From a virus (Duplodnaviria > Caudoviricetes), in the IMG/VR virus record IMGVR_UViG_3300011443_000026, positions 1 through 41,768 of that record: 41,768 bases of DNA, one strand, 5' to 3'. Shown piece by piece: positions 1,521 through 40,977 of this stretch. A program made the position numbers and the translations under genes. The first letter of the stretch is position 1; the number at the start of each line of letters is the position of its first letter. The notes under the pieces are model-generated. The model was not told the DNA's origin. It did no database searches and worked only from the letters and a program-made list of their open reading frames with translations.

Positions 1521-1924
1521 TATCTAGGTCCTTCCTCTCCAAATGTTGCAAGTTTTAGATTTACAAGGTTCTGCATACTTCTACGAATGATTGGCCCCCA
1601 AAAATCTCTGGCAGGAGTAAGGATTGCCCATTTCCCCTGATATGCTAATTCCAGCCAAATTGGATAATCTAAATTTGGATCATGCTGCAAAATGATTGTA
1701 CCAATTGGCCCCGTAGGTTCTACTGTAGCTTTTAACCCACGACGGGCATCGCCAGTACGATCTGTCCAGGGGGCATTTTCCTTAGCCCATGCTTCCATAT
1801 CAGCAGCTTGCTCAATGGCAACATGCCTACCTGACTGGAACACGGCGAACAGATACTTCTCCGTTTGTTCCCCTAACTTGGTCAGGGGCGTACCCGTTAG
1901 TTCTACGCCATTCACTACTGGCAT
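1520..1924 (-). CDS. Tail completion protein, HK97 gp10-like
   Basis: AKENAPWTDRTGDARRGL ... YPIWLELA ... ILTPA motifs typical of the family. Confidence 0.75.
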   Translation of the reverse strand: MPVVNGVELTGTPLTKLGEQTEKYLFAVFQSGRHVAIEQAADMEAWAKENAPWTDRTGDARRGLKATVEPTGPIGTIILQHDPNLDYPIWLELAYQGKWAILTPARDFWGPIIRRSMQNLVNLKLATFGEEGPR

Positions 1925-2966
1925 CTAACCCTCCTTTATCCTGCAACAGCTCAATCATTGCGGCAGCAGAATCCTGCCAAGTCTGATGAGTAGATAGCCA
2001 GCCTCTTGCGTTCCTACCAACTTGCTCTGCCTTATCTGGTTGATAGTAACAGAACTGCATAGCATCTGCTACACGATGCTCACTAGCTACCATCCATTCA
2101 CCATTCTCACCTCGTCGTTGCGGCAGCACAGGTTGAATCCTACCACCCCAGGCAATCAATGACCATTCTTCGGTGTGGCCGTCATCTAGTCCTGCATACT
2201 TCTGCGTAATCACAGGCAAGCCCATCATAGCAGCTTCACGGTGCGGCATCCCCCAACCTTCGCATCTTGAGGGTAATACCAGACAATCTCCCTGCCGATA
2301 GAAGTCAGCCATATCTTTATAGACGCTCATGTCTATTTTAATACGCTTATCCATATCTTCAGCTTTGCTAATCAAGGTAAGTAGTGGATTACCTGTAGGA
2401 ATACTTTTGATGATAAGCCTTACATCCTGTATTCCATCAGTCTTGCCTCTAAAAAGTTTGTAGAACGCACCGTAGACTTCTTGCCAGCCCTTACGAGTTC
2501 CCCTATCTGCTATAGTAAGAAAAGTATAAGGCCGATTACGCACAGGTTCTACTAATGGAAACTCATCTGGATCTGTACCTAACGGCACAACAGAAATAGG
2601 AATCTTCAGCCCACTACGCTCAAAGGCTTCCTTATTATGCTGACTCGGCACAATCACACGTTCTACACCTGAGCGATGGATATTAGTTATATGGCTCTTA
2701 GGAAGCATACTACTTTCGCACATCGTGAAGAGCCAGTGTCTACCCTTGCCAGGTAACTTATGGACTCCTTTAGGGATGTTGCAAGTAATGGTAAGATTAT
2801 CCCAGTCTATTCGCTGTTGCCGTAACATCCATTCTGGCTTTGCCATATCATCTGTAGTTAACGGCAGCACATCCAATCCAAACTCCTGCAATGCTTTCAC
2901 CATGCGAGAAGAGAATCTACCATAGCCATCATATTGCTGATAGTAGCTAATCCAATTTACTGTCAT
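1827..2966 (-). CDS. Glycosyltransferase, GT-B fold (family 4-like)
   Basis: GYGR N-terminus, VIVPSQHNK, RKGW, and D.LVLPSRCEGWGMPHREAAMMGLPVI GT4 signature. Confidence 0.9.
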   Translation of the reverse strand: MTVNWISYYQQYDGYGRFSSRMVKALQEFGLDVLPLTTDDMAKPEWMLRQQRIDWDNLTITCNIPKGVHKLPGKGRHWLFTMCESSMLPKSHITNIHRSGVERVIVPSQHNKEAFERSGLKIPISVVPLGTDPDEFPLVEPVRNRPYTFLTIADRGTRKGWQEVYGAFYKLFRGKTDGIQDVRLIIKSIPTGNPLLTLISKAEDMDKRIKIDMSVYKDMADFYRQGDCLVLPSRCEGWGMPHREAAMMGLPVITQKYAGLDDGHTEEWSLIAWGGRIQPVLPQRRGENGEWMVASEHRVADAMQFCYYQPDKAEQVGRNARGWLSTHQTWQDSAAAMIELLQDKGGLDASSEWRRTNGYAPDQVRGTNGEVSVRRVPVR

Positions 2967-3490: not shown

Positions 3491-3620
3491 TTAGATCTTC
3501 AATATATCTATCCGTTGCCATAAAGCCATAATCCCGCTCTATCTTCTCACGGATAACTTCTATATCCCCACTATCCACCAAGATTTCAAGCCTCTGCCGT
3601 CTCTCGGATTCGTCGGACAT
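3438..3620 (-). CDS. Small hypothetical protein
   Basis: 60 aa charged ORF overlapping both neighbours. Confidence 0.45.
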   Translation of the reverse strand: MSDESERRQRLEILVDSGDIEVIREKIERDYGFMATDRYIEDLIVFVRDMLDGRDDRNLK

Positions 3621-4266
3621 CTTCCCGCCTTCTGAGCCATTCTTGCATACATGCTACTCTATCTTCTATTTCTATCGAAGGAAAGTGCATGATATAAGCA
3701 TTACTATCATAATTCCTAAAATCTACACTGTGCCAACGTACATCAAAAAAGTAGGTAAGGCGATATAGCTCAGTTTCGTGCGAGAACACAGCACAGGGAT
3801 TCAGATACTTCTCATGCTGTACATAGCCTAACAGGTGATGCAATGCAGCTTGCTCCCACCAATTATGATCTAAGTACTCATCCATCTCCCATATCTTCTC
3901 TAGATACGGCAGCAAGTCAGGTTTCGCAATCCATAGCCCTGCCGATGGAACATCTCCTTCTGGAGAGTAGTGTCTGGTGATTGCTTGGATAGCCCAATCT
4001 GGAATATGCGTCAGTATATCTTCCCCATACTCCAAGATAAGTACATCACAATCTATCCATATCACTACATCATAGATCATCAGCAGTTCTATCATAAGTA
4101 TAATCTTACCCCAGGAAGCAGGTCTACCAAATTCTTGCGCCACTGTGGGGTAATACTCTACATACTGATAGCCATGCTGCGCCGCATACCGTTGAAAGCC
4201 TGGGCGTGACACTTCCAAACAGGCTGCATACTCATCAACGGCAAAGGTGCAGAGAGCCTTCTTCAT
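3586..4266 (-). CDS. Glycosyltransferase, GT-A fold (GT34 / GMA12-MNN10-like)
   Basis: YAAQHGY, SWGKI, WIDCD (DxD), WWEQAAL and IMHF motifs. Confidence 0.85.
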   Translation of the reverse strand: MKKALCTFAVDEYAACLEVSRPGFQRYAAQHGYQYVEYYPTVAQEFGRPASWGKIILMIELLMIYDVVIWIDCDVLILEYGEDILTHIPDWAIQAITRHYSPEGDVPSAGLWIAKPDLLPYLEKIWEMDEYLDHNWWEQAALHHLLGYVQHEKYLNPCAVFSHETELYRLTYFFDVRWHSVDFRNYDSNAYIMHFPSIEIEDRVACMQEWLRRREDVRRIRETAEA

Positions 4267-11588: not shown

Positions 11589-11687
11589 CTGGGATTCCTT
11601 ATGATGAATGTGTTAGGTTTAGCCTAACACATAACACTTGTATTGTAAAGTGGCAAAAGGGCTGTATATTGTGGGCATATACCCAAT

Positions 11688-11716
11688 TTGCGCCCTAGCG
11701 GGGGCTGTGCTATACT
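11688..11716 (+). promoter_or_regulatory. Sigma70-type promoter for the replication operon
   Basis: TTGCGC - 17 nt - TATACT with TG extended -10, in the divergent intergenic region. Confidence 0.6.
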
Positions 11717-11776
11717 GCTATATACGTTGTGCGCCCAAGCACAATAAAATATAACGCCGAGAAAGGCCAAGACAGA

Positions 11777-15293: not shown

Positions 15294-15683
15294 ATGAACG
15301 GCAGCACCAGTAGAATCCTAGCCTTTGACCCAGGAGAAATGGTGGGTATAGCCTTACTAGAAGATGGTGAATTTTTATGGGGAATGACTTGTAAGGCCAA
15401 AGCCTTTGAACGTTACCCCTTCATCTTGTCGCTTACCAAGATGACCAACCCTACCACCATCGTCATAGAATCCCCACCCAACCAGACACCACACTTCAAC
15501 AAAGACCAGGTTCATGTGTATGAACTACTCAAGAGTTACTATGAAATAGCTGGACTCACCGTAGTTTGCATTACACCTGGACAGTGGAAAAGATTAGTAG
15601 AACGTTGTAAAATTGATGTTACGCACGTAAGAGACGCCGCAGATATGGCAACCCTACAGTACAGGAAAGAGCTCAAGAAATGA
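15294..15683 (+). CDS. RuvC-like Holliday junction resolvase
   Basis: ILAFDPG, IVIES, P.QWK and H..DA motifs. Confidence 0.75.
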   Translation: MNGSTSRILAFDPGEMVGIALLEDGEFLWGMTCKAKAFERYPFILSLTKMTNPTTIVIESPPNQTPHFNKDQVHVYELLKSYYEIAGLTVVCITPGQWKRLVERCKIDVTHVRDAADMATLQYRKELKK

Positions 15684-16501
15684 ATGAGCCAGACATCACA
15701 ATTATCGGTGGAGGTTTGAGCGCAATCTATGCTTACTTTGGATGCTTAGATGCTGGCTATAATGCTGACCAGATAGAAGTGCTGGCAAGCAAGATGGCAC
15801 TACCCATCGGCGCAATCTTCATGTACGAAAGTCCGATCCCCTGGGTAGCCACACCCATCACCAGTATCCTACTAGGTACAGCAGATGTATATTCTGTAAA
15901 CCAGTGGACGAAGGTTGTAAAGACCAGCGCACATAACAGATTTGGTAATAGCCAGAAAACTGTGACAGACTATCTGTACATGTATGAGGAAATGGCTACA
16001 ACGCTATGGGGTATGATGCCTAGTCTACGGGAAAGCAAGCCTCTATCCCCTACCGATATAGAAGAGCTCAAGCATGAACGCAAGGCAGTAATCTGTACCT
16101 TCGCCAATCCCACCACCAAGCAAGGATATGCAGATAAGGGTTATCTCATAAACTTCCCCATCTACATCAATAAGGTGGAAACGGATAAGCACATCGTAGT
16201 TTATAATGGCTTGAACACAATCCCCTGGGTACGGCAGACAATGGTTCCCGGACACCAGTACACGGAATATCCAAACCATGTCTTCAGTATAGCCGTCGCT
16301 ACCTATGAGAACAATCGTGGAAATGGAGATGGGCAGATACACTTTGCCCCTGACCTCATGCCCAACACACCACCGTTAACTTGGGATGAGCGCATAGAAA
16401 ACAATCTTCTACGAGTTGGTAGATTGGCTGCTTTCGAAACAGGCTACCTATCCCACAAAGCTAGACGTGAAACATCACGCTTTCTACAGGAGTTAGTATG
16501 A
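15680..16501 (+). CDS. FAD/NAD-binding Rossmann-fold protein (oxidoreductase/mutase-like)
   Basis: ITIIGGGLSA dinucleotide-binding motif; C-terminal VGRLA.F as in UDP-galactopyranose mutase-like flavoproteins. Confidence 0.6.
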   Translation: MNEPDITIIGGGLSAIYAYFGCLDAGYNADQIEVLASKMALPIGAIFMYESPIPWVATPITSILLGTADVYSVNQWTKVVKTSAHNRFGNSQKTVTDYLYMYEEMATTLWGMMPSLRESKPLSPTDIEELKHERKAVICTFANPTTKQGYADKGYLINFPIYINKVETDKHIVVYNGLNTIPWVRQTMVPGHQYTEYPNHVFSIAVATYENNRGNGDGQIHFAPDLMPNTPPLTWDERIENNLLRVGRLAAFETGYLSHKARRETSRFLQELV

Positions 16502-17469
16502 GAAAGACCTTAGCCCAAGTATGGGACGAACAGCAAGAATACAACAACAAAGTACAGGAACTGCAAGAACGTAACAACACAGAATGGGTCATCAACTACA
16601 TTCTGGGCGCACATAGCGAGCTAAGTGAGCTATTAGAGCAAACTCACTGGAAGACGCATCGCATAGAACGTACTGGTCGATTCGGCCCAAACGTACTAGA
16701 AGAACTAGCTGACGTCACCAAGTATGTGTTCAGCATGTGGCAGCAGATGGGCTATGGTGAGCAAGATATGCTAGACGCCATGCACCGCAAACATGAAATT
16801 CTTGAGCAGCTCATGTATCAAGACACAAGACCACAACTACAAGAACGCAATATCCTAATGCTAGATTTAGATGGTGTAGTTGCCAATTTCCGTGAAGGCT
16901 TTATGCAATGGCTCAGTGGAACCCCCTGGCAAGATATACTCACCCTAGACGAACGTGACATCGGCTTACACATGGACATCAACAATGGCTGGAACTACCA
17001 TAGCTATCACCAAGCTAAGATGGAATTTGAACGTGACGGTGGTTACGGCACACTACCATCCATCGCCCGTATTAAGAAGTGCGTTAACGCCCTACACAGA
17101 GTCGGTTGGTACGTCATCGTGTATACAGCTAGACCTTATCGTACCTACAAGCGTATCTGGAGTGACACTTGGCTATGGCTTAAAAACCACGATATCGAAA
17201 CAGATGAGCTACACTTTGGCTATGATGAGCGTGTAGTTGCGGCCAGCCAATACAAAGAAGAGAACCATGTCGTCGCCATAGAGGATGATCCTACACTTAT
17301 CAAACGTTATGTAGGCTGCAACATCCCCGTCCTGCTATGCCCACAACCGTACAACCAGAACATCTTTCTCAACAACGACTATCTGAGGTTAATACAAGAT
17401 GAACAAGAACATTGGGACATCAGTAATGCTGTCCACAACACAATTACCACTGGGTCTTTCCATGCCTGA
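16498..17469 (+). CDS. Fusion of all-alpha NTP pyrophosphatase (dimeric dUTPase/MazG-like) and HAD nucleotidase
   Basis: SELSELL..THWK.H and EELADV; then LDLDGVV, YTAR and IEDD HAD motifs. Confidence 0.8.
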   Translation: MRKTLAQVWDEQQEYNNKVQELQERNNTEWVINYILGAHSELSELLEQTHWKTHRIERTGRFGPNVLEELADVTKYVFSMWQQMGYGEQDMLDAMHRKHEILEQLMYQDTRPQLQERNILMLDLDGVVANFREGFMQWLSGTPWQDILTLDERDIGLHMDINNGWNYHSYHQAKMEFERDGGYGTLPSIARIKKCVNALHRVGWYVIVYTARPYRTYKRIWSDTWLWLKNHDIETDELHFGYDERVVAASQYKEENHVVAIEDDPTLIKRYVGCNIPVLLCPQPYNQNIFLNNDYLRLIQDEQEHWDISNAVHNTITTGSFHA

Positions 17470-17830
17470 CAGAGAAAAGGAAACACTTGAAGCCATGCGT
17501 GATTTGGTCAATACCCCGACCGTCTTGACTCCTGTAGAACAGCAGCGTAAGGAAACTACGTTACATCTCTACAAACAAGAATTTGAAGTTTGTAAAGATA
17601 TTTTTGTAGACCGAAACAAGGTCTACAAAAATACTTTTGAATATATGGGATTGATCGGCACAGTGATCACCCTTATAGGAGACGTTTATCGCCTACGCAA
17701 CATGATTATACAGGAACCCGATCACGGCAGGAAGTACAAAGAGCAGATTGAAGATAAATTGCGTGACGTTGTGAACCAAGCATTGATTAGCTTAATGATG
17801 CTACACGACGACAACTACGAAGGCAAGTAA
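17462..17830 (+). CDS. DUF1599-like nucleotide-modification-associated domain protein
   Basis: C.DIF..RN..Y...F ... RL.N ... IEDKL.D..N pattern. Confidence 0.6.
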   Translation: MPDREKETLEAMRDLVNTPTVLTPVEQQRKETTLHLYKQEFEVCKDIFVDRNKVYKNTFEYMGLIGTVITLIGDVYRLRNMIIQEPDHGRKYKEQIEDKLRDVVNQALISLMMLHDDNYEGK

Positions 17831-17831
17831 C

Positions 17832-18647
17832 ATGACCACCATGTCCCGTAAGGGCAGCAATGTCTTCAATGAAGCACCAGATCAGCAAGGGCGCAATGAT
17901 GAATATTACGCTAATCTGGAGGTACACATTTTACAGTACCCCACCCGTGAGCAGTTCCTTAAGCTCATGAGCAAAGCCAGTGTTGCTGTACGAGGCAACA
18001 TTGTAGGGGATGAGGAAATTGACGAGGTGATGGCAGATGATATGCTACGAGGTGGCTTGAACCAATCCTTAGAATGGATGCAGGTCATCTTTGAAGTAGG
18101 GGGCGTCAGCAGGGGCGTTACCCACCAACTCGTACGAACCCGTAAAGCCAGCTTTGCTCAACAGAGTATGCGCTATGCCAACATGGGTACATTCAATGCA
18201 AGAGTACCTGTACGCATATCCAAGTCCCCTGAAGCCCTACGTATATGGCGCAAAGCTATAGAAGCCAGCCGCCAAGCCTATCAAGAACTTACCAACATGG
18301 GTGTGCCGATGGAAGATGCAAGGACGGTATGCCCAATCGCAACGCAAACGTATATTATTTGCAGCTACCCACTTAGCGAATTCCTTGCGCTGTACAGCTA
18401 CAGAGCCTGTCAGATGTTCTACCCAGAGATGGTAGCCTTAATGGGGTTGATGAAAGCAGAACTAATCCGTGTATGCCCCTGGCTAGAAGAACACATCAAG
18501 ATAAGTTGTGAAAAGACTGGGCCTGGAATCAATGGCTTACCGCATAAGTGTATGTATCAAGGCTTTGAAATGGTACAGGGGAACTGTACCTTTGAGTGGG
18601 CTGTGGAGGACAATCGGGTATATAAATCCCGGAAGGTAGATAGGTAA
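17832..18647 (+). CDS. thyX: Flavin-dependent thymidylate synthase-like protein (divergent)
   Basis: S.LE....F...GVSR..THQLVRTRKASFAQQSMRY and EDAR..P motifs. Confidence 0.8.
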   Translation: MTTMSRKGSNVFNEAPDQQGRNDEYYANLEVHILQYPTREQFLKLMSKASVAVRGNIVGDEEIDEVMADDMLRGGLNQSLEWMQVIFEVGGVSRGVTHQLVRTRKASFAQQSMRYANMGTFNARVPVRISKSPEALRIWRKAIEASRQAYQELTNMGVPMEDARTVCPIATQTYIICSYPLSEFLALYSYRACQMFYPEMVALMGLMKAELIRVCPWLEEHIKISCEKTGPGINGLPHKCMYQGFEMVQGNCTFEWAVEDNRVYKSRKVDR

Positions 18648-23585: not shown

Positions 23586-25486
23586 TGACACAGTTCATAC
23601 ATGGTACACATGATTTAGATGGGCATGTTCATATGCTCAACAAGCCAGGATGGTTGGTGGTCACCGAAAGCTTGGGAAGCAATCCTAATGATCATACAGG
23701 TGGGAACTACAGCTATTGGACGCAGTTGGGCTTCAGCATCATAGCTAGGCTGAACAATGGCTACCATCCCGTAGGTACGATACCGCAAGCAAATGAATAC
23801 GAAGACTTTGCTACAAGATGTGCGAACTTCGTTGCGGCCACACCAGGCATCACAGTAGCGATTGTGGGCAATGAACCCAATCATAAGAACGAGAGGCCAT
23901 ACGAACAAACCATCACACCCGTACAATATGCCAAGTGTTTTGATCTGTGTTATGAAAGCATCCATAATGTAGCTCCCACCATCCAAGTAGCCACCTCTGC
24001 GGTGGCTCCTTGGGATGCAACTACCCACTATCCAGGCAACCAGAACGGGGATTGGGTACAGTATTGGGTAGATATGCTCAACACTATCCAGAAAGCCGAT
24101 GCCATCACGCTCCATACCTATACTCACGGTGTTGCGCCGGAACTCATCACCAATCAGGAGAAGATGTCCCCACCCTTCAATCGGTATCACTACCACTTCC
24201 TAGCCTATCAGGACTTCATGGATAGGATGCCCGCACGCTTCCGGCAACACCCTGTATACATCACAGAAACAGACCAGGTCATCCCCTGGGCTGACCAGAA
24301 CGCCGGATGGGTACAAGAAGCTTACAACGAGATAGACTACTGGAATCACAACAATGCACAGAAGATACACGCTCTCTGTTTATATCGCAGCAACAAAAAT
24401 GACATGTGGAGCTTTACCGATAAGCAGGGAGTTATCGATGATTTCAAGGAAGCCGTACAAGCCGGACATCGCTTTCCCGTTACCGACCACCCCCTCCCGC
24501 CTACGACGCCACAACCGCCCGAAGAGATTACGCCATCCCCTCCGCAACCCCCTTCCACCGCTGTTGATGTAAGAGACATAGATCCCATGCTCATCGTGCG
24601 TGGCGTGAGTTTTGATTACGCTACGCCACCGCAGGGGATATGGTACTGGAAGATTACGAAGGCGCAATGGTTGGAGAATGCGGCCCAAACAGTAGGACCA
24701 GACCATCACATCTTAGGTAGGGTACTGAAAGATAATCAAGAACAAGCCGGAGTAAGATTACAGGTGGATTGGCCTTCCGGCAGCACACTAGTCACCAGTA
24801 AGAGAGATGAACCTAGTGCGACGTATAACTATGATTTCCCCATGTCAGCTTCTTTGAATGAGTATTCTATTAAAGTTGATGATGGCGTCAGCGATAGAGC
24901 CACTGGGATTGGAATGGGGAAGAACGGCAACCCCCGAGAACATACATCTACGTGGATTAACTTTGAATGGACGCAATCCCAAGGAACAGTAATCCCACCC
25001 GTAAAGCCCCCTATAGAACCAACACCAGAACCAGAGGATATGGAGCATCCCCTACAGGGAAGTAGGATTACGCAGCACTTCTACCAGAATCCGGCAAACT
25101 ATCAACAGTTCGGACTACCTGGTCATAACGGCACGGACTTCGGTGGCAAGCCAAGCAGGACTCCAGTATTGTGCATCGCGAAGGGTATAGTAGCCTTCAT
25201 AGGGAATGATGTAGCTTACGGAAACTACGTGCGGGTGAAGCACCAAGACATGGATTGTTATACGTTCTTCGCCCATTTGGACTCTATCTCGGTTGCGGCA
25301 GGACAAGTAATCGTGGCGGGACAGGAAGTAGGGAAGTTGGGAACTACGGGGAATTCGACGGGAGTACATCTACATTTGGAAGTGCGGTTGATGAATACAG
25401 ATGGAACTTATCGGGAAGGGACTCCTATGCCGAAGGGCAGAGTAGATCCACAGACCTTTTTCTGTGAACGTGGGTTGCGTCTATGA
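23585..25486 (+). CDS. Endolysin: glycoside-hydrolase-like domain, Pro-rich linkers, M23 peptidase
   Basis: GNEPN and YITE (GH-A clan-like); HNGTDF, YGNYV, HL and STGVHLHLE (M23). Confidence 0.8.
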   Translation: MTQFIHGTHDLDGHVHMLNKPGWLVVTESLGSNPNDHTGGNYSYWTQLGFSIIARLNNGYHPVGTIPQANEYEDFATRCANFVAATPGITVAIVGNEPNHKNERPYEQTITPVQYAKCFDLCYESIHNVAPTIQVATSAVAPWDATTHYPGNQNGDWVQYWVDMLNTIQKADAITLHTYTHGVAPELITNQEKMSPPFNRYHYHFLAYQDFMDRMPARFRQHPVYITETDQVIPWADQNAGWVQEAYNEIDYWNHNNAQKIHALCLYRSNKNDMWSFTDKQGVIDDFKEAVQAGHRFPVTDHPLPPTTPQPPEEITPSPPQPPSTAVDVRDIDPMLIVRGVSFDYATPPQGIWYWKITKAQWLENAAQTVGPDHHILGRVLKDNQEQAGVRLQVDWPSGSTLVTSKRDEPSATYNYDFPMSASLNEYSIKVDDGVSDRATGIGMGKNGNPREHTSTWINFEWTQSQGTVIPPVKPPIEPTPEPEDMEHPLQGSRITQHFYQNPANYQQFGLPGHNGTDFGGKPSRTPVLCIAKGIVAFIGNDVAYGNYVRVKHQDMDCYTFFAHLDSISVAAGQVIVAGQEVGKLGTTGNSTGVHLHLEVRLMNTDGTYREGTPMPKGRVDPQTFFCERGLRL

Positions 25487-25603: not shown

Positions 25604-26626
25604 ATGATTGAGGAGAAGTTAGAGCAGAGTCGGGAGATTGTTGAAAAGGTGATGCGGAAGTATGAACCCTACGCCATCGTAGCAATGGTATCTGGCGGGA
25701 AGGATTCCCTGTGCGCCTATATGGTAGGACGTGAATTGGGCGTGCCTGTGACGCACATCATGCACGGAGTGACCGGAACTGGAGTGTTGGAAACCACACA
25801 GTTCGTACGGAAGTTTGCGGCAGCAGAAGATGTAATCTATCTGGAAGCGGATGCGGAAAGTAGTTATGAAGATTACGTGAGGAGGAAGGGATTCTTTGGG
25901 ATTGGCGTACAAGCTCATGGATTTTCATACAGGATACTGAAGCACCAACCGTTCTTCAAAGTCATATCCTCTTCGATACGGCAGAGGAAGTGGTATCGTA
26001 ATGTGATGCTATTGAACGGAGCTAGGATTGCGGAGAGCGTCAATCGTGCGAAGAACATGACTGTACCCTTTCGGGATGATGGTGGGAATATTTGGACGAA
26101 CATCATCCACTATTGGACCCGGCAGGAAAGAGATGAATATCTGGAGAGCAGGGGAGCTGCGATCAATCCTGTGACGACTGTGCTATGTAGATCAGGGGAA
26201 TGTCTATGCGGAACGATGCAGAACGCAGCAATTCGGGAAGAGGTTGCATTTTACTTCCCAGAGTGGGGAGGTTGGATTGATAAGTTGGAGCAAGAGGTGA
26301 AGAGTGTGTTTGGATGGGGATGGGGTGAGCTGAACCCGATTGCGGCGCAGCGAAAGATCGAGCGGGAAGAGAGGAGGAAGGTGGGAAGAAGGGAATATCG
26401 TAGAAGGGTGGATGACGATGATTCCGGCAGCACCAATAGATCATATCAACCTATGTGCGTAGATTGCTTGGAGGATGGGGAAGTGGGGGAGGATGGGAAT
26501 GACGGAGATGGTAGTGGAGCTGGATTGGGTGGTGATGATGTTTCTCTTCGCTATAGTGAGCTTCTTGGCACTTTTAACCGAACTGTGGTGGAAAGAGAGA
26601 ATAAGAGCCGAAGAAGAAGACCTTAG
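25604..26626 (+). CDS. PAPS reductase-family (PP-loop) protein
   Basis: SGGKDS, TG....T, LK..P, G.R..ES..R and SGECLCG motifs. Confidence 0.85.
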   Translation: MIEEKLEQSREIVEKVMRKYEPYAIVAMVSGGKDSLCAYMVGRELGVPVTHIMHGVTGTGVLETTQFVRKFAAAEDVIYLEADAESSYEDYVRRKGFFGIGVQAHGFSYRILKHQPFFKVISSSIRQRKWYRNVMLLNGARIAESVNRAKNMTVPFRDDGGNIWTNIIHYWTRQERDEYLESRGAAINPVTTVLCRSGECLCGTMQNAAIREEVAFYFPEWGGWIDKLEQEVKSVFGWGWGELNPIAAQRKIEREERRKVGRREYRRRVDDDDSGSTNRSYQPMCVDCLEDGEVGEDGNDGDGSGAGLGGDDVSLRYSELLGTFNRTVVERENKSRRRRP

Positions 26627-27037: not shown

Positions 27038-27487
27038 ATGGGGAAGGGAACAGTTAAGATGACGAAGATTCGTGTGGGGGATCTTACATTGGAGGAGCGG
27101 GAAACAGCGGTGATGCAGAATGCTAGCGATCGTGGGAAGTGGGTGATCTATACAGATGACCCCGTTATGATTGCGAAGCTCGAGAGATTGGGGATGCCGG
27201 CTGTGGTGAGAGCGGATGGGATTGGAAGGGAGTATATCGTGGATGCCAATCAAGTTTCATTTCGTAGGAAGAGAGTGTTGTCGGAAGAGGAGAAGGAGAG
27301 GAGGAGGGAGAGAGCTAGAAGGAGCTTCGGACACGGCCAGCCGAAGAGTACGGCCCCACAGACTAGGAAGGCGGGGGATGAGAAGGAAGTTTGTGATGCG
27401 TGCGGTGGAACCGGATATTGGGATGGGGATGTGGAAGGTGGGATTGCTTGTGATGTGTGCGGGGGAAGTGGGGTAAAGGAGGACTAA
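27038..27487 (+). CDS. Hypothetical protein with C-terminal CxxCxGxG zinc finger pair
   Basis: CDACGGTG and CDVCGGSG; basic helix RKRVLSEEEKERRRERAR; start chosen at a TGATG overlap. Confidence 0.6.
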   Translation: MGKGTVKMTKIRVGDLTLEERETAVMQNASDRGKWVIYTDDPVMIAKLERLGMPAVVRADGIGREYIVDANQVSFRRKRVLSEEEKERRRERARRSFGHGQPKSTAPQTRKAGDEKEVCDACGGTGYWDGDVEGGIACDVCGGSGVKED

Positions 27488-27496
27488 TTAAGGTGG

Positions 27497-27535
27497 GGGC
27501 ATTGTGGCGGCTTTAGGCATGTTGCCACAATGCCC
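27497..27535 (+). terminator. Inverted repeat ending the rightward operon
   Basis: GGGCATTGTGGC ... GCCACAATGCCC (12 bp stem); no adjacent U tract. Confidence 0.45.
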
Positions 27536-27697
27536 AAAAAAGTTTTATATTGGCTGCGTGTAGGCGTTTTAAGCGTGCTTAGGTGCGTTTAGGTAGTTTG
27601 CTACCTTTTACTTGTTTTAAGGGCTTGCGGTGGCTTAAAATGGTGCTTTTTAATCATATTTTATCATTTTATAAAATCAAAAAAAAAAAAATTTTCA

Positions 27698-27739: not shown

Positions 27740-28310
27740 GATGGGTCGGATCGCCGGCGGCTACCTGCAGCAAAAGATGCAATGCCGCAAGTACCTAACC
27801 AAAAAAGTTGCAAAAATTGCCCAGCCGCCCAGCCGGGGCAGCCCCCCAAGCCGCAATTTTTGTTACAGCAAGCAAGCCCCCAAGCCCAGCCGCCCAAGCT
27901 TTGCCGGGGGGTAAGCCCCCACACAAAGCCCCAAAAAACCCTAAAAGCTGGGCAGCCGCCCAGTTTTATAACCTGTATAGGGGGTATAGGGGGTTATAAA
28001 ATGGTTGCAATTATTTATGCTAAATAATAATGGTAAGTTGTTTTTTGCCCCCCGTACACTGGTAAAAAGTTGCAATATGCCCAAACGGTAACCCCATGCC
28101 CGTTTGTATGCCCAAAGTGCCAAATGCCCAAAAAGGCCAAAAAGCCGGGCAAGGTTAAATTTTGCTTTATGTAAACTACCGTTTTTTGTAGCCCATTTGT
28201 GCTATTTACATAAAGCGCAAAAAGCCGCCCGGCACGGCCCCAAAGCCGCCAAAATAGGTTTATTAAACCCGCAATAAAAGTTGCGTAGGGGTTAGTGTAC
28301 AATATACTTT

Positions 28311-28545
28311 AAGGTATTGTAAGGCAAAGTATTAAGTGCCAAGTTAGCCGTAGTGTATTTTGCATAATGTATGTATAAACCCGTGTGTACATAGTTTGTT
28401 ATACCTTAATACCTTACAATACCTTACCCCCACTTTGCAGCCGGGCAAGGTATTGCCGGGGGGCTTGCCGGGCTTTACCTTGCAATACCTTACTTTGGGG
28501 CTTGCCGGGCTTGCCGGGCAAGGTATTGTAAAGCATTAAGGTATT
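28311..28545. repeat. Cluster of AAGGTATT octamers in both orientations
   Basis: Copies at 28311(+), 28408(-), 28418(-), 28447(+), 28484(-), 28520(+), 28538(+). Confidence 0.8.
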
Positions 28546-30025
28546 GCAAGCCCCCTTTTTTGCCGGGCTGCCCCCACGCAAGCCGCCCAAAAAGCCCTTT
28601 TAGCTGCAAGCTAAAACCCAACTATTTTATTATGTAAACCATACCAAAAAGCCCAAAAAGCAAGCCGCCAAGCCCTATATAGGTTGCAATAGTACCCTAG
28701 TACCAAAAAGCCCTACAAAAGCCCTTGCAGCCCCCCAGCAAGCCCCAGCCGCCAAGCTGGGGGGCTTTTTGCTGGGGCTTGCCGGGCTTTTTTGCTGGGC
28801 TTGCCGGGGCAGCCGCCCAGCCCCCCACAAAGCCCCCCAGCCAAAGCCCGGCTTGGCTGCCCAAGCCCAAAGCAAGCCCCCAAGCCGGGCTTTGCTTTGG
28901 CGGCCCGGCTGCCCCCCGGCAAGCCGCCCAGCCCCAGCCCCCAAGTAAAGCAAGCTGGGGCCAAGATTTTTTATGTAAAGTGCTTGCAAATTGCAAGTAA
29001 ACTATGGGGCTTGCCGGGCCGCAAAGCTGCCCAGCAAAGCCCCCCACAAAAGCCCACACAAAAGCCCCCCACACAAAGCCCCCACACTATTGCAATACAG
29101 CGCAAGTGTAATTTGCATATATAGCCCATTGTGTTAGTATGTGCATAGTAGTATTGCACTTTAAGTAAAACGGGGGTTTGGCTGGGGGCAATTGCCCCCA
29201 TGCCCCAGCCCCCCAGCCCCAGCCCAGCTTTTGCCCATGCTTACTTATGGGGGGTTGCTGGGGCAAACTAGCCGCAAAGCCGCAAAGCTTTGTGTGGGGG
29301 GCTTGCCGGGCTTTTGCCGGGGCAGCCCCCACGTACCTTAAAAACAGCATATGCGCCAAAAAGCAATAAGTAAGCCAAGTACACAATGTAAACGTTAGGC
29401 TATAAACCAAAGCTTTGCCCCCCAGCCGGGGGGCTTGGGCTGGGGCATTAAACCCCCCATAATTTGCCCATACACTTTGCAAGCCCCCCTAGTTATAGGG
29501 CAGCAAGCAAGCGTATAAAGCTTTGCCAAGTAAGCCGTATAAAACCCCAAAGTAAGGTAAAGCCAAAGCCCCCCAGCCGGGGGGCAGCCGCCAAGCCGGG
29601 TTATACCTACGCAATAAAAGCCCATAGTGTAGTAAGCCACAGCAACACCGCTAAACGCACATACCGTAAAACCGGGGCAGCCCCAAAGCCCCCCGTATAA
29701 CCCGGCTGCCCGGCTTGCAAACATAACCCCCTAGTAAGGGGGGTATAGGGTAAAAAATTAGGCAACCCCCAAGTAAGGTATTTACAAGTACAACGTTAAA
29801 CCCAAAGTTGCAAGTATGGGCATATGTAATATGTTACAAAAGCGTATGGGCTGCCCCCACTTTGCCGGGGGTTTGCACATATAACCATAACCCCAGCATA
29901 AAGCCGGGCAGCCCCATGCGCCAAGCATTACATACACTTGCAAGCCCCCCAGCTTGCCCCCCGGCTGGGCTGGGGGCTTTGCAAGTGTATGCAATGGGCA
30001 TACCATAGTAAAGCAAGGTAAAAAC

Positions 30026-30286
30026 ATGCAAAAAGTAATAGTAAGTAAACGCAACCATTTGGCACATGGGGTTGTGTATACATGGGGCTGCAAGTATTAC
30101 TACACAATGGGCAAGCAAGCCTGGGCTTACCCCCCAAGCTTTGCCGGGCAGCCCGGCAAGCCAAGCCCCCAAGTAAAAAGCCGGGCATGTTATTGTGGGG
30201 GTTTTATTGCCATATATAAAGCCCACACAATAAGTTATTATGCCCCCCATGCTTTTAGCTGGGGGCTGCCCAGCCGGGGGGTATAA
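30026..30286 (+). CDS. Small basic protein lacking Asp/Glu (86 aa)
   Basis: Preceded by a double hairpin and AAGCAAGG RBS variant; stop abuts the next ATG (TAAATG). Confidence 0.55.
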   Translation: MQKVIVSKRNHLAHGVVYTWGCKYYYTMGKQAWAYPPSFAGQPGKPSPQVKSRACYCGGFIAIYKAHTISYYAPHAFSWGLPSRGV

Positions 30287-31216
30287 ATGCCCGGTTTAAC
30301 CCGGCAAGCTGGGGGCAAGCCCAAAAAGCTTACCCCAGCCCCAGCCTATAAACGCATACAAAGCATGGGGGCAAGCAAAGCCAAAAAAGCCAAAGCCCTT
30401 AATGCCCAAGCTTTTGCCCGGCTTGCTGCCCACAAAGCCCGGCTTTTAAGCCGGGGCATTGCCCCCAAAGTAGTTGCCAAAGCCAAGCCCCAGCACATAC
30501 GTAAATGGGCAAAAGCCCCCAAGCCCTTGCAGCCCATAAAGCTGCAAAAAGCCGCCCAAGTGTACTTGCAGTATACGCATATACAATGGTTTATGGGGGT
30601 TGCAAGGTATTACACAATGCCCGGCTTTACAGTGGGCTATTTGCAAGCTGTTAACCCAGCCCAGCAAACCATAACAGTGTATATACCAAAGCCCCCAGCC
30701 GGGCAGCCGGGGGGCAGCCATATTGCAAGCATAAACCCTAACGGCTTGCAGCATACCTATACAGTAATAAACCCAAGCCCGGCTGGGGCTTACTTGGGCA
30801 TACTGCAAGCCCTTGCCCAAGCCGCCAAAGCCAAAGCCGCCAAGCAAGCAAGCCGGGCAGCCGCCAAGCTGCAAGCCGCCCAAGCTGCCCTTGCGGCCCG
30901 GCAAGCAAAAGCCGCCACAAAAGCCGCCCAAGCTGCCCTTGCAGCCCAAGCCCAAGCCCTTGCCCAGCAAGCCAAAGCCCTTGCAGCCGGGGCAGCCGCA
31001 AAGCCGCCCAAGCCGCCCAAAGCAAAGCCCCCCAAGCAAGCCGGGGGGCAAAAGCCCAAGCCCAGCAAGCCGCCCAAGTACAAGCCCGGCTTGCAGCCCA
31101 AAAAGCCCAAAAAATTTGCCCCCAAAGCCGCCCAGCAAGCCGCCAAAGCCAAAGCTTTGCACAAAGCCGCCCATGCCCTTGCAGCTTTGCAGCAAGCCGC
31201 CCAAAGCCCCATATAA
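30287..31216 (+). CDS. Lys/Ala/Pro/Gln-rich basic protein lacking Asp/Glu (histone H1-like tails, central globular segment)
   Basis: 309 aa; GGGGGG RBS-like run; plausible non-repetitive central domain; followed by an intergenic hairpin element. Confidence 0.65.
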   Translation: MPGLTRQAGGKPKKLTPAPAYKRIQSMGASKAKKAKALNAQAFARLAAHKARLLSRGIAPKVVAKAKPQHIRKWAKAPKPLQPIKLQKAAQVYLQYTHIQWFMGVARYYTMPGFTVGYLQAVNPAQQTITVYIPKPPAGQPGGSHIASINPNGLQHTYTVINPSPAGAYLGILQALAQAAKAKAAKQASRAAAKLQAAQAALAARQAKAATKAAQAALAAQAQALAQQAKALAAGAAAKPPKPPKAKPPKQAGGQKPKPSKPPKYKPGLQPKKPKKFAPKAAQQAAKAKALHKAAHALAALQQAAQSPI

Positions 31217-31330
31217 GCCGCCCAAAGCCCCCCAGCAAGCCCAGCTTGCCGGGGGGCTGGGGCTGCCCATTATGCGTATTTTGGCGCATAACATACAACT
31301 TTACATAACCAAGAAAGGTTATAACGTACC

Positions 31331-31744
31331 ATGCAAACCCAAGCCACAACCCAAGCCCCAGCCGCCCAAACCCCAGCCACAAAAGCCCCCTACGCTAATA
31401 CAGCTTTGGGGCAATTTGCCGGGTATGCCCAAGCCCAAGCCCAAAAAGCCGCCCAGCAAGCTGCCCGGCTTGCAGCCGCCACGTATACACTGGTAAAGCC
31501 CAGCAAAGCCAACATAAGCCGCAATAAACCGGGCATAACCCAAGCCCAGCAAAACGTGGTAAACGCAAACCTTGCAGCAACCCTAATTTTGCAGCTTTAC
31601 CCCCTAGTTGCCCAAAGTGGGCTTACCCCAGCCCAGCAAGCCCAAGTAAGCCAACACTTGCTGCAAAGCGTTTATACCTTGCAGCAAGCCGCCCAAATTG
31701 CCCCAGCCAAGCAAGCCGTACAATTAGTGCTGCCCCCCAAGTAA
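31331..31744 (+). CDS. Gln/Ala-rich helical protein lacking Asp/Glu
   Basis: AAGAAAGG RBS shared with the early genes; followed by an intrinsic terminator. Confidence 0.75.
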   Translation: MQTQATTQAPAAQTPATKAPYANTALGQFAGYAQAQAQKAAQQAARLAAATYTLVKPSKANISRNKPGITQAQQNVVNANLAATLILQLYPLVAQSGLTPAQQAQVSQHLLQSVYTLQQAAQIAPAKQAVQLVLPPK

Positions 31745-31789
31745 GCCCCAGCAAGCCCCCCGTTTTACTTGGGCTTGCCCCCACACAAT

Positions 31790-31820
31790 GCCCCAGCCCC
31801 CCGGCTGGGGCTTTTTTTTT
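31790..31820 (+). terminator. Rho-independent terminator
   Basis: GCCCCAGCC-CCCC-GGCTGGGGC followed by T9. Confidence 0.85.
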
Positions 31821-32390
31821 GCCCAGCCGGGCAGCAAGCAAATTGCTGCCCCCCGGCTGGGCAGCAACCCAAGCCCGGCAAGCAAGCCGGGCAGCAAACC
31901 CCAGCAAGCCGGGCAGCCCACAAAGCCCCCCGGCTTGCCCAGCAACTTTACATAATAAATCTTAACCCCAGCTGGGTTAAACCCCCCAGCAAGCCCCCCG
32001 GCAAAGCCGGGCAGCAAAGCCCAGCCCCCAAGCCGGGCAGCAAAGCCCCCAGCCCTTACAATGGGCTTGCCGGGCTTTGCCCCAGCTTGCCGGGCAGCAA
32101 GCCGCCCAAGCCCAGCCCCCCGGCAAAGCAAGCCGCCCAAGCCGCCCACAATGGGCAGCCGGGCAGCCCAGCCCCAGCAAGCCCAGCCGGGCAGCCGCAA
32201 AGCTGCCCCCAGCCGGGCAGCAAGGGCAGCCGGGCAAGGGCAGCCCCCACAATGGGCAGCCCCAGCAAGCCGGGGGGCAGCCGCCCAGCAAGCCGGGCAG
32301 CAAGGGCAGCCCAGCCCCCACAATGGGCAGCCGCCCAGCCGGGCAAGGGCAAGCCGCCCAAGCCGGGCAGCCGCCCAAGCCGGGCAGCAA
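31821..32390. repeat. Degenerate low-complexity repeats (AGCCGGGCAGC, CAAGCC, CCCACAATGGGCAGCC)
   Basis: Many AGCCGGGCA copies; CCCACAATGGGCAGCC three times near 32145, 32246 and 32317. Confidence 0.8.
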
Positions 32391-32498
32391 CGCAAAAAAG
32401 ATTGTATAGCAGTTTTTGTAAAACAAATCTCGGCACAGTTTTTGCAAAACAAATCTCGTAACCAGTTTTACACCACACGATCTGAAAGGCAACACAAA

Positions 32499-32726
32499 GT
32501 GAAAATCAAAAAAGCTGTGCCGGGTACAAAAGTAAATACAAGATTCCACGGCGCAAAAGTGCAAGGTGAAATCTCGTACCTGTACCCGGTACAAAAAGAT
32601 TACAGGCATACAATGGTAGAATTAGAAATTGTGTACCAAAACACAATCTTTAGTGTAAGCCGCTACCTGTACGAAATTACAGCCGTACCAAAGCCAAAAA
32701 CAGAAATCTCGCCAGCCAAGCAATAG
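32499..32726 (+). CDS. Hypothetical early protein (75 aa)
   Basis: GAAAGG RBS then GTG; this is the non-repetitive C-terminal part of ORF 32061-32726. Confidence 0.6.
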   Translation: MKIKKAVPGTKVNTRFHGAKVQGEISYLYPVQKDYRHTMVELEIVYQNTIFSVSRYLYEITAVPKPKTEISPAKQ

Positions 32727-32822
32727 GCAAACGAGGCGGCACAAACAAGAACAATGTTTGGGCCGCACCGTTTACCAGATTGTGGTAAAATAAACCAACA
32801 CAAAGTTCAGAAAGGCTTTACC

Positions 32823-33053
32823 ATGCAACAAGAAAAAGTGCAACTGCGTATCATATTTCCCCCATGTGGCGCACAGCACCACCCGGCATTTTCAGATGCA
32901 ATTATGCTACCAGATGGTAACTATCGTTTAGATTACCCGCTGCACATAAAAGGTATTCTGAAATCTCGCAAAGTGCAAGAAGAATGGGCTTTGCAAAAAG
33001 CCAAGCACATCCGAAGCTGGGGTGGCGGCATTTCAGTTCTGATAGTAGGCTAG
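32823..33053 (+). CDS. Hypothetical early protein
   Basis: ATG after TTCAGAAAGG. Confidence 0.65.
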   Translation: MQQEKVQLRIIFPPCGAQHHPAFSDAIMLPDGNYRLDYPLHIKGILKSRKVQEEWALQKAKHIRSWGGGISVLIVG

Positions 33054-33165
33054 GCTTGTAGGCAAACTAGATTGTAGGGTACAGTTTTGCACCTTACAAT
33101 CTGGTTTACGGGCAAGCGTGCCAGTAAAAGAAAAAGAAAAACACAAGTTCAGAAAGGCTTACAAA

Positions 33166-33648
33166 ATGTTTATGGATTGTTGGGTTGCCACCGATGGAAT
33201 TACAACCGTACGGTTTGCAGATTGGCAAAGCGCAGAAATATACTGCGCTGAAACAGGATGGCCCAAAGCCGATCTGCTGTATGTACGGCAGCAAGTAACC
33301 GTTGGATCGGATGGCAGCGTAACGCTAGAACCCTGGTGCAATCGGATGGACCCCAATGTAGATTGCGAAGTAGAAGGTACATGGCAAGAAAGTTTGTACC
33401 TGCCACCAGCGCAAAGCATGATTGATGGGTACAGCGAAGATGACCAGCCTGTAACCTACAACAATCCGAAATATTTGCAGCAACTAGGCAGTATTTCGGA
33501 AAGGTTGGGCTGGCCGTTTAGAGACCTAGCTGCAACAGAACCCACTATTTACCACAATCTTGTGGCCTACGTGCAAGAATGCGATGCACAGCACAAGAAG
33601 CCCCTGCTAAAGGAAGCGGAAAAAATTGTGGGTAGGTACGCCAACTAA
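33166..33648 (+). CDS. Hypothetical early protein
   Basis: ATG after TTCAGAAAGG. Confidence 0.7.
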   Translation: MFMDCWVATDGITTVRFADWQSAEIYCAETGWPKADLLYVRQQVTVGSDGSVTLEPWCNRMDPNVDCEVEGTWQESLYLPPAQSMIDGYSEDDQPVTYNNPKYLQQLGSISERLGWPFRDLAATEPTIYHNLVAYVQECDAQHKKPLLKEAEKIVGRYAN

Positions 33649-33762
33649 TCTTGTAGGCAAAGGGTACGGCACACATAACAATCTGATGTGTGTGCCGTTA
33701 CCTTTACATACAATCTAGTATGGTAAAATAAGTACAACCAAATGGTCAGAAAGGCCAACCCC

Positions 33763-33978
33763 ATGAACCAGAAAATCTTGGCGCAAGCCACAGCGCAAGC
33801 GCAACAATCGGAAGACCTACAGGTAACAGTTGAAAGATTGTTAGCCTTAAACCCATCTTTCGACTTGTATTACTTTTCCGAATGGTTTGCCGCCCAAAAC
33901 GGTTACAATCCATCGGAATGGCAAATACAAGAACAGTTGCAATGGCATATAGAAGAATACCTACAGCCTAGTTTGTAG
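33763..33978 (+). CDS. Hypothetical early protein
   Basis: ATG after TCAGAAAGG. Confidence 0.65.
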   Translation: MNQKILAQATAQAQQSEDLQVTVERLLALNPSFDLYYFSEWFAAQNGYNPSEWQIQEQLQWHIEEYLQPSL

Positions 33979-34072
33979 GCAAACCAGATTGCATAGCAGT
34001 TTTTAGCTTTGCAATCTCGTTTACTTACAATCTCGTAAGTAACATAACCAAAGTTCAGAAAGGCTTACAAAA

Positions 34073-34381
34073 ATGTTTCGCATTCAGTATGTAGTAAATG
34101 CCCCTATAATTCCAGATATATCTGATCTGCCAGCTTGGTTTGCATCGGATGAGGGGCAAGCAGCAAATCCAGTGGTGCAATATACAGAAAATATTTCTGA
34201 AGCACTTACAATTTCTGCTGCCCTAATCTCTAAATACGATTATGGTATTTCACCCAACGGCAACAATCTGGGTACTATACATCTGGTAATAGAGTGGGTT
34301 GAATTAGAAGATAATGAATACGATGGCTATGCCCCCTATCTTCACTTTGTATGGTATACAGAAATAGGATTAGAGCAATAA
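34073..34381 (+). CDS. Hypothetical acidic early protein
   Basis: ATG after TTCAGAAAGG. Confidence 0.7.
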   Translation: MFRIQYVVNAPIIPDISDLPAWFASDEGQAANPVVQYTENISEALTISAALISKYDYGISPNGNNLGTIHLVIEWVELEDNEYDGYAPYLHFVWYTEIGLEQ

Positions 34382-39906: not shown

Positions 39907-40011
39907 GAAGTTCGTAAATTCAGACAGATGGCTCTCACGATGTGGGGGCCATTTGTCTGCATCATACGAGATGCAGAAAGAAAACCAATTCCAGAAAGGA
40001 CTAGATATGAA

Positions 40012-40920
40012 ATGAAACTGATACGTGACCGCTGGATGCCGATGTTTGCTCTAGCAAGACAGCTGGAACCCAGGGTTCTTAACTTAAGAACTAAAGAAGC
40101 TCCAGATATAATAGAGCAAGGCATGAAAGCGGATTATCGTGCGGCAGAAGCATTGATGGCAATATCAGAAACTATTGTGCTGCCGTCATCTGTTATGCTA
40201 GACCTAGTTCACAACATCGACAGGATCGATACTCGTGGATGGGTTAGGCTGCCGTATCCTTATGTTACCATTCAGTTCACCCACCCAATCTTAGAAACAG
40301 ATCTCATGGCGCATGAGGAAAAGAATGATCTCATGAAGACATTTGGTCTTAAGGAAGATATGGTGGAAGGGATTGTAATCGGTAACGCAGATCAGGACAA
40401 ACGTCCTTTTCCACCGCAACATGTATTCAACATGATGAACTGCTGTATACTCTTCCGCAGTACAAGTGTTAATCGTGTAGCATGGTTAGGAACAGATAAA
40501 CCTGCTCATCCCCACTGGCAGAACAGCACCTTCAAGGAAGCTAATCTGCCGCCCAACGCCAGGGAAAATAAGTACAGGATGATAGCGTTATGCTATGCGA
40601 TCAACCTGTTCTTAAACGCCCCCAACGTGATTGTTCAGCGTGAGAAGCCTGATCCCAAAGTTAATGCTAAACGCAAGAGCAAAGGAAAAGCCCTTCTGCC
40701 TGAATATCACACTGTTACAATTCAGAAGTTGCAAGTCAAGTACGAAGAACCTGGCGGGAAGACGGGAACGGCCCACACACGTATGTATCCTGTGCGTGGA
40801 CACTTCCGCAAACTCGCACAGTACGAAGATCCAATATGGATTCCAAACCATTTCAGGGGATTGAAGCATGGTCTTGAGAGTATGGTAAAGGAAGTCTATA
40901 GAGTCCCACCCAAGAAGTAG
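40012..40920 (+). CDS. Phage hypothetical protein with C-terminal VRGH.R...WI..H.RG motif
   Basis: CCAGAAAGGA RBS; LPYP and VRGHFR motifs. Confidence 0.75.
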   Translation: MKLIRDRWMPMFALARQLEPRVLNLRTKEAPDIIEQGMKADYRAAEALMAISETIVLPSSVMLDLVHNIDRIDTRGWVRLPYPYVTIQFTHPILETDLMAHEEKNDLMKTFGLKEDMVEGIVIGNADQDKRPFPPQHVFNMMNCCILFRSTSVNRVAWLGTDKPAHPHWQNSTFKEANLPPNARENKYRMIALCYAINLFLNAPNVIVQREKPDPKVNAKRKSKGKALLPEYHTVTIQKLQVKYEEPGGKTGTAHTRMYPVRGHFRKLAQYEDPIWIPNHFRGLKHGLESMVKEVYRVPPKK

Positions 40921-40948: not shown

Positions 40949-40977
40949 TTGCCTTGCCGCCTAATTCGTGCTATAAT
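40949..40977 (+). promoter_or_regulatory. Sigma70-type promoter
   Basis: TTGCCT - 17 nt - TATAAT with TG extended -10. Confidence 0.7.

Follow-up and report, generated by a model that had tools for sequence, protein, structure and literature searches.

A leader almost free of GA and TC in a clade of tailed phages, and its fit to a proposed context-bound DNA mark

Some phages guard their DNA against restriction enzymes with marks that are written in a dinucleotide context. In the Pseudomonas phage iggy, the enzyme DpdA has been proven to write dPreQ0 at GA only (PMC10484667), and in coliphage CAjan it is reported to do so at GA and GGC (PMC7544227). Hypermodification of thymidine is described for M6, ViI, and PaMx11, the last of which uses an FAD oxidoreductase (PMC8989533), and a context-dependent form, with sugar-type adducts in a TG motif, for the Pbunavirus phages F8 and 14-1 (PMC12191111, a preprint). 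Here, we consider a 41,768-bp contig of a tailed phage (IMG/VR record IMGVR_UViG_3300011443_000026; the whole contig is referred to below as the window), in which a block of 4.6 kb is written almost without the dinucleotide GA and its complement TC.

The mark that we propose for this phage and its relatives would resemble those of iggy and CAjan in being bound to a dinucleotide and in guarding against restriction enzymes, and iggy shows the same palindrome pattern together with GA/TC-free runs of 152–171 bp. The differences are that iggy and CAjan are without a multi-kb block and that neither DpdA nor Que genes were found in the clade. With the thymidine-hypermodifying phages, the proposed mark would have in common that it is partial, context-bound, bulky, and on T, although the motif here would be TC. 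F8 has a ThyX homologue (25%), a kinase/phosphatase, and MazG, but in the 36 kb of it that were examined a GA/TC block is missing and nothing matches the oxidoreductase profile. The F8 genome (NC_007810.1) does have, in a hypothetical gene at ~50600–51170, 573 bp in a row that lack AT and 224 bp that lack AC/GT, which may be low complexity.

A different parallel comes from phages with a specialized leading region. The first-step share of the T5 genome is 7.9% (10.1101/866236), and T5/BF23 and Murciavirus are reported to combine a leading ~8%, in which motif avoidance is stricter, with a repeat-rich non-coding tract at its end (PMC10644984; PMC12455610). According to these accounts, what is avoided there are host sites of 4–8 bp in unmodified genomes, whereas here it is a whole dinucleotide, probably the one that the phage itself marks. 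T5 enters in two steps and has terminal repeats; the present clade is known here from contigs alone. CmdT, of the CmdTAC system, is reported to ADP-ribosylate A in GA of single-stranded RNA (PMC11618068) and so offers a case of the GA dinucleotide being read in an anti-phage setting. It differs in acting on mRNA, on one strand, which leaves the loss of TC from the sense strand and the purging of non-coding DNA unexplained. Motif-bound hypermodification and stricter leading regions are known kinds; we found nothing in print on a self-exclusion zone several kb long that has acid-free proteins and matching promoter patches, and no description of a multi-kb dinucleotide-free leader was found in a literature search that had subscription journals and supplements outside its scope.

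The block, its conservation and its two proteins

27778..32399, no strand: GA/TC-free leader block, from dinucleotide counts and its occurrence at the same place in relatives
27746..27795, plus strand: left-edge signal, a GGATCG-like word (the last GA/TC before the block) and then ATGCC...AAGTAC, in the window and relatives
30287..31216, plus strand: D1, a basic protein of 309 aa without Asp or Glu, from the open reading frame list, homologues, and a fold model
31331..31744, plus strand: D2, a helical, Gln/Ala-rich protein of 137 aa without Asp or Glu, from the open reading frame list and relatives
31790..31811, plus strand: terminator-like hairpin and T run, 3' of D2
32400..34100, no strand: transition zone, with ~70 GA/TC per kb against 115–135 in the genome body

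The block is real, conserved, and under strong selection. An exact recount, with two GA and one TC in these 4,622 bp, agrees with the initial annotation, which had listed three exceptions (at 28965, 31313, and 31960) where several hundred GA/TC would be expected; 2000 base shuffles of the block gave 548 ± 18, with a minimum of 481. The context of all three is A-A-GA-W. Observed/expected ratios (o/e) for GA and TC are 0.01 and 0.00 within the block and ~1.0 in the flanks on both sides. Both strands are purged of GA, coding and non-coding DNA alike, and TC is missing from the coding strand to the same degree as GA. The two artifacts that had been raised at the outset, low complexity and a misassembly or contaminant, do not account for this. 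Low complexity is not the explanation because D1 and D2, when recoded with the codon usage of the genome, still carry 52 ± 6 and 24 ± 4 GA/TC, compared with 0 and 0 observed. Nor is the block a misassembly or contaminant, because contigs from seven further sequencing runs (X2–X8) match pieces of it, mostly with 0 differences, and span both its left edge (X2 and X3) and its right edge (X2, X3, and X4).

In its first 2.5 kb, the block has no convincing gene, only many short GC-rich repeats and hairpins, and from the terminator-like hairpin to ~32390 it consists of GC-rich repeats without coding function. Its left edge is sharp, whereas to the right C-N-GA, GATT, and GAAA are the contexts that reappear first in the transition zone, and the density of GA/TC reaches the level of the body by ~36 kb. 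The left-edge signal is a candidate genome end or packaging site, and the block itself may be the end of the genome that is injected or read first. It makes up ~8% of a genome of roughly 56 kb, the part that is missing from the window being covered by a relative, G001. Contig depth in run X1 is flat across the block at 8.3–9.4, save for one 379-bp contig at 4.5, and the doubled depth that would be a sign of a terminal repeat was not seen in X1, where contigs cannot show ends.

Other words are also banned. In six blocks pooled, CCAAT occurs 0 times against 75 expected at the body rate and CCWGG once against 54, and GGCC has an o/e of 0.07, whereas all three are kept or half kept in the genome body. 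Stricter avoidance of host sites in a leading region, a trait of the T5 type, is therefore found here, and these extra bans fit either a leader that is unprotected, like the DNA that enters first in T5 and Murciavirus, or a mark that has secondary contexts. AA/TT are elevated inside the blocks. The earlier view that general restriction-site avoidance is not at work was thus partly right, the loss of CCAAT, CCWGG, and most GGCC being the qualification; the accompanying statement that GA and GATC are used freely elsewhere holds for GA/TC and is slightly strong for GATC, which has an o/e of ~0.7 in the body.

Alignment of the primase yielded 9 viral and 73 metagenome loci, and the counts use eight distinct relatives (76–94% primase identity) that reach the block start. 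Left out were L010, taken to be the window's own record (equal length, 100% identity); L012, L013, L016, and L021 as duplicates of L001, L004, L005, and L002; L014 and L020 as near copies of L004 and L017; and L015, L018, and L019, which stop short of the block. The syntenic desert that the initial annotation had suggested seeking in related contigs is present, whole or nearly so, in 4 relatives at the same place, over 4.6–5.0 kb. The first GA/TC after the block start lies at +4720 in G004, +4782 in G002, +4561 in L017 (the single one in 4,865 bp), and +4640 in L022, where GA/TC are dense again from +4965. L011 has none in the 3,677 bp to its contig end and G001 has one in 788 bp to its own, while G005 stops after 105 bp. 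The blocks of the window and relatives begin right after the GGATCG-like word and the ATGCC...AAGTAC motif, and they can be aligned with one another only in short pieces. A strict "length ruler" was dropped as an idea, the blocks being 4.6–5.0 kb long and ending 150–650 bp past D2 (isolated exceptions counted).

The leader of G003 (L003:16980-19474) is leaky, with 65 GA/TC in 2.5 kb, and the exceptions are far from random: 59/65 are CNGA and 54/65 GCNGA, compared with 5.6% GCNGA in its body. Four other genomes likewise favor C at -2 in their transition zones. We count this tolerance of CNGA, which is like the context preference of a DNA-acting enzyme, in favor of a mark. GCNGC is absent from the same leaky leader. 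Of the 9 Asp/Glu in the G003 homologue of D1 (P0092), 5 come directly behind an Ala (GCN), a placement that possibly follows the GCNGA rule of the leader.

Asp and Glu make up 12% of residues in other genes and none in D1 and D2, both of which are conserved in the 4 relatives holding whole blocks. Ala, Gln, Thr, Pro, and Lys stand in for them, Asn being barely raised (5.0 versus 4.3%). When 1.84 billion representatives were searched with a profile of D1, 22 homologues emerged, the window's own cluster included, and 21 of the 22 are free of Asp/Glu, with none in ~3,750 residues. The predicted structure of D1 (pLDDT 87) has a long basic N-terminal helix and a small β barrel, which weakly resembles SH3, Tudor, and KOW folds: the best matches were a ribosomal SH3-like domain (Z 6.0), the Tudor domain of PcrA/UvrD (5.1), and NusG (4.9), all below the bar of 8. 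For D2, the model was poor (pLDDT 62) and no family or fold was matched. Neither protein matched a PHROG family or a known inhibitor family or fold.

G007 and G008, distant relatives represented by complete genomes (primase 40%, different structural genes), are without a block. Searching with a repeat pattern from the block, and scanning viral contigs with D1 or with a PAPS-reductase-like protein of the window, gave no relatives; the left-edge motif was found at 7 loci, of which 4 were known and 3 (L110, L112, and L114) are without a long GA/TC-free run. An unrelated 25-kb virus record, G009 (L123, L124), has ~70 GA/TC per kb throughout and lacks ATC over 2.5 kb.

Free patches and restriction sites in the genome body

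11607..11759, no strand: 153-bp GA/TC-free patch covering the intergenic region from which small terminase and helicase diverge
27483..27654, no strand: 172-bp GA/TC-free patch that follows the final gene of the replication operon and precedes the block

Outside the block, these are the two longest free runs of the window, the next being 41 bp. The first has a chance probability of ~4e-6 and an extended -10-like word at 11708, and it recurs in 4 of the 5 relatives covering the region (G001, G002, G004, and G005; 153–172 bp). The second measures 166–175 bp in six relatives; in two others, a single site divides it. G001 has, in addition, a lineage-specific GA/TC-free patch of 179 bp (L083:7100-7278) directly 5' of an HNH endonuclease gene; this patch is absent from the window and was not copied from a block.

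The remainder of the genome bears on the question through its restriction sites. Six-base palindromes, 48 without GA/TC and 16 with, were called purged when present at <0.15 of second-order expectation in a pooled body of 213 kb from 7 related genomes. Purging affected 20/48 of the palindromes without GA/TC and 0/16 of those with them (p = 0.003, a pooled value that overstates independence because the seven genomes are kin); per-genome medians point in the same direction in 7/7, with p < 0.05 in 6. Survivors of purged sites overlap TC in 48/96 flanks (expected 0.29; above expectation in 6/7 genomes) and GA in 62/126 (expected 0.25; 7/7 genomes), and the rescue is already weak two bases from the site, at 1.2–1.3-fold. 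The effect is graded, CGCG having an o/e of 0.14, 0.46, and 1.03 at 0, 1, and 2 GA/TC overlaps and one degenerate site family rising from 0–0.02 with no unit to 0.09–0.27 with one and 0.87 with two (GAGCTC).

As a positive control, iggy gave part of the same picture, with 0/16 versus 9/48 palindromes purged, TC overlap in 30/56 (expected 0.17), and its four GA/TC-free runs at 27694, 39300, 42700, and 60074, one of them inside a low-complexity gene. GA overlap in iggy is 1/8, with few sites; rescue in cases where the G falls outside the site (G|A) is thus seen in the clade and not in iggy. Rescue by both TC and GA overlap fits a bulky adduct better than the small change to G in iggy. The last 628 bp of iggy (MN029011.1, 60001–60628) hold 14 GA/TC, compared with 97 per kb for its genome. 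CAjan likewise showed 0/16 versus 9/48, which was not significant. The distant relative G008 is reversed, with 11/16 GA/TC-containing palindromes purged versus 7/48, and a prophage of the likely host family showed 3/16 versus 15–16/48 and no overlap excess. Because G008 and the prophage are without the signature, the mark would not be simply host-wide. G008 has the same nucleotide cluster as the clade (described below) together with two methyltransferase-like genes, and its GATC o/e is 0.18.

A proposed mark and the alternatives to it

We lean slightly toward a reading in which a bulky mark at TC/GA, written by the phage, protects the genome body, while the leader and control regions are left bare for host RNA polymerase and D1 and D2 hand over to the rest. 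That a mark of some kind is present on the phage DNA is, taken alone, quite probable. In this scheme, the phage would write a covalent mark over the greater part of its DNA and thereby guard the body against the restriction enzymes of the host. The block and the two control regions would be kept free of TC/GA so that host RNA polymerase could start and pass before phage proteins exist. The mark would probably sit on the T of TC and derive from a cluster of nucleotide genes, followed by a second, context-reading step; D1, basic and SH3/Tudor-like, and D2 might then let transcription or DNA entry proceed into marked DNA. Being bare, the leader would have to purge CCAAT, CCWGG, and GGCC, which the body tolerates. 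The reading is favored because the purging extends to both strands and to genes and non-coding DNA alike, even though all Asp/Glu are lost by it; because there are patches in mid-genome and before the block, for which a host effector acting at entry gives no reason; because palindromes lacking GA/TC are purged and their survivors overlap GA/TC; and because the iggy control is positive and the G008 and prophage controls are negative.

A fuller version, which we offer only tentatively, has the phage in two chemical states set by sequence: a body with an undescribed TC/GA mark and a bare 4.6–5-kb boot sector, the writer lying outside the DpdA, kinase/transferase, and TET routes and D1 (Tudor/KOW-like) and D2 converting host RNA polymerase to read the mark. 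If this were true, phage DNA modification and its context preference could be read from banned words and spared sites. If the phage does write such a mark, the price of hypermodification would be visible, in first genes and control regions that stay unmarked and in two proteins without Asp/Glu. An old question, namely how the host's RNA polymerase deals with hypermodified phage DNA when infection begins, would become testable, with two candidate hand-over proteins. The observations would then point to a TC/GA-reading DNA-modifying enzyme in phages of the barely studied Chloroflexota, and the restriction-site rescue test, positive on iggy too, could reveal hidden modifications in uncultured phages.

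15680..18647, plus strand: nucleotide cluster, conserved, with domain and profile matches
1827..2966, minus strand: GT4 glycosyltransferase of the head-tail operon, present in 5/5 relatives that cover the locus

By its predicted functions, the cluster is a candidate source of a modified pyrimidine. It encodes an FAD-binding oxidoreductase (amino-oxidase/UDP-galactopyranose-mutase clan), a MazG/dUTPase-HAD fusion, a 143-aa helical protein, and a ThyX-like enzyme with RTR in place of RHR, so that a gene set of the thymidine-hypermodification type (thymidylate-synthase-like plus pyrophosphatase/phosphatase, near the polymerase) is present. The 143-aa protein we take to be Nmad1/DUF1599-like, a label that no scan gave. 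GT4 is a putative writer of the second step and the only DNA-level enzyme found for it, Pfam and PHROG scans having named no 5-hmdU kinase or amino acid:DNA transferase. Among the genomes examined, cluster and GT4 occur together only in this clade, a joint presence that is suggestive but ad hoc. A second glycosyltransferase-like open reading frame (3586-4266, minus strand) in the head-tail operon is shared with G002 alone; its label is a reading of the sequence that no scan names.

The initial annotation had proposed a genome-wide mark with a bare leader, to which the patches and the relaxed purging lend support, and had named as precedents DpdA-type and Dnd phosphorothioate systems, which do not fit. 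PF01702, the TGT/DpdA family, matched 0/5 clade records against 14/14 controls, although a very divergent DpdA could escape. A tblastn search with the DpdA of iggy and CAjan against the window and 19 clade loci gave no match at E ≤ 1, and no FolE or QueCDE genes were found among the window and G001-specific open reading frames scanned. PADLOC returned no match for 30 proteins, and there is no methyltransferase among the window genes. A PAPS-reductase-like gene of the Dnd/Ssp kind is rejected as a cause, being found in the window only, with no match in relatives or in PADLOC, and the phosphorothioate motifs GATC, GAAC, and GAGC are not singled out in the transition zones.

Several observations weigh against a phage-written mark in the form proposed. 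No writer was identified in the clade, and neither candidate can be a sufficient cause, the cluster being present in G007, G008, and mycobacteriophage Onyinye and GT4 in the prophage, all without a block. CAjan, with its proven GA/GGC marks, has a longest free run of 81 bp. Some sites that contain GA/TC are themselves depleted: GGWCC is purged at an o/e of 0.12, and GTCGAC (0.23) and CTCGAG (0.30), with TTCGAA and GGATCC, span 0.23–0.33. The kinship of the seven genomes has been mentioned, and G007, without a block, shows a weaker trend the same way (0/16 versus 10–11/48, p = 0.2). With regard to promoters, the divergent region of G003 has a free run of just 57 bp, a promoter-like word at 40969 sits among GA/TC, and the extended -10 pattern has no match inside the block. 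That the mark would hinder RNA polymerase is assumed.

Four alternatives need to be weighed. The same mark could be accompanied by a leader that is bare for another reason, namely to escape a modification-dependent nuclease or glycosylase of the host (END, GmrSD, or Dag type) until D1 and D2 are made as inhibitors, the rest of the genome entering or being exposed later. This shares all of the evidence for a mark; END nucleases are reported to attack many hypermodified phages, some of which encode inhibitors (PMC12191111), and the block, at ~8% of ~56 kb, corresponds to the T5 first-step share (7.9%). We nevertheless consider it unlikely, as it leaves the mid-genome patches of 153–172 bp unexplained and D1 and D2 match no known inhibitor family or fold. 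Alternatively, there may be no phage mark at all, and a host effector reads unmodified TC/GA, which a T5-like, first-entering leader avoids until a counter-defense is expressed. Candidates would be a DarT- or CmdT-like ADP-ribosyltransferase, a TC deaminase, a phosphorothioate-linked nuclease, or a dinucleotide protospacer-adjacent motif (PAM). Such an effector, the second model of the initial annotation, gains from the loss of CCAAT, CCWGG, and GGCC in the blocks, reminiscent of restriction-modification sites in first-injected regions (PMC10644984; PMC12455610), and from CmdT as a reported reader of GA (PMC11618068). However, CmdT acts on single-stranded RNA and would purge one strand where both are purged here, the survival of GA/TC-overlapping sites in the body and the promoter patches are not predicted, and the prophage of the likely host family has neither block nor patch. 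With both signatures poorly explained, we regard this as quite unlikely. Avoidance of a CRISPR PAM in particular is unsupported: 151 genomes from the probable host family yielded no spacer match, in a weak search that scored two candidates for each.

A phage protein that coats TC/GA non-covalently, as a coat or silencer that also shuts off host genes and shields overlapping sites, would account for the block, the patches, and the site rescue together. To our knowledge, no protein reads a bare dinucleotide tightly enough for this, protection at entry would require the protein to be co-injected, and the rescue, limited to overlapping sites and weak at a distance of 2 bases, is narrower than a protein footprint. 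We therefore hold this to be very unlikely, even with D1 strongly basic and a DNA-binding shield proposed for T5 (cited in PMC10644984). Finally, the block could be a mutational scar in which a TC deaminase erased TC from DNA that is often single-stranded, as the raised AA/TT in blocks and the position of patches at likely melting regions might suggest. G+C is not lowered (0.43–0.56 versus 0.45–0.47, and higher in 5/6 blocks), Asp/Glu give way to Ala, Gln, Thr, Pro, and Lys with Asn hardly up, and the edges are sharp and conserved, so that this explanation is largely refuted and carries next to no weight.

Host and neighboring features

23585-25486, plus strand: lysin with an N-terminal domain and a C-terminal M23 domain
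25604-26626, plus strand: PAPS-reductase-like gene, in a slot of variable content before the block

In the window, the structural genes form an operon on the minus strand, the replication operon starts at 11729, and small early genes lie past the block. Its sequence is present in sediment, groundwater, and soil runs. Cultured phages are distant, the terminase and polymerase of the window having best matches of <30% and the FAD-binding oxidoreductase no tblastn match among them. The host is probably a member of the Anaerolineae (Chloroflexota), a prediction made because lysin homologues and DNA-level matches point to Chloroflexota: among the best 120 homologues, the only ones named by organism are from one Anaerolineae and one Caldilineaceae bacterium, and the DNA-level matches of the lysin and the related prophage head-tail genes fall in one Chloroflexota family. 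In two relatives, the variable slot before the block holds ParB-N proteins instead (L002:16442-17089; L005:14738-15457). Among the early proteins, one of 330 aa (39928-40920, plus strand) is AcrVA2-like by features with a very high score, the family being found on 13–15% of cluster members; its predicted structure has a TM of 0.50–0.57 to a named AcrVA2-like entry, and it is kept in G001 and G004.

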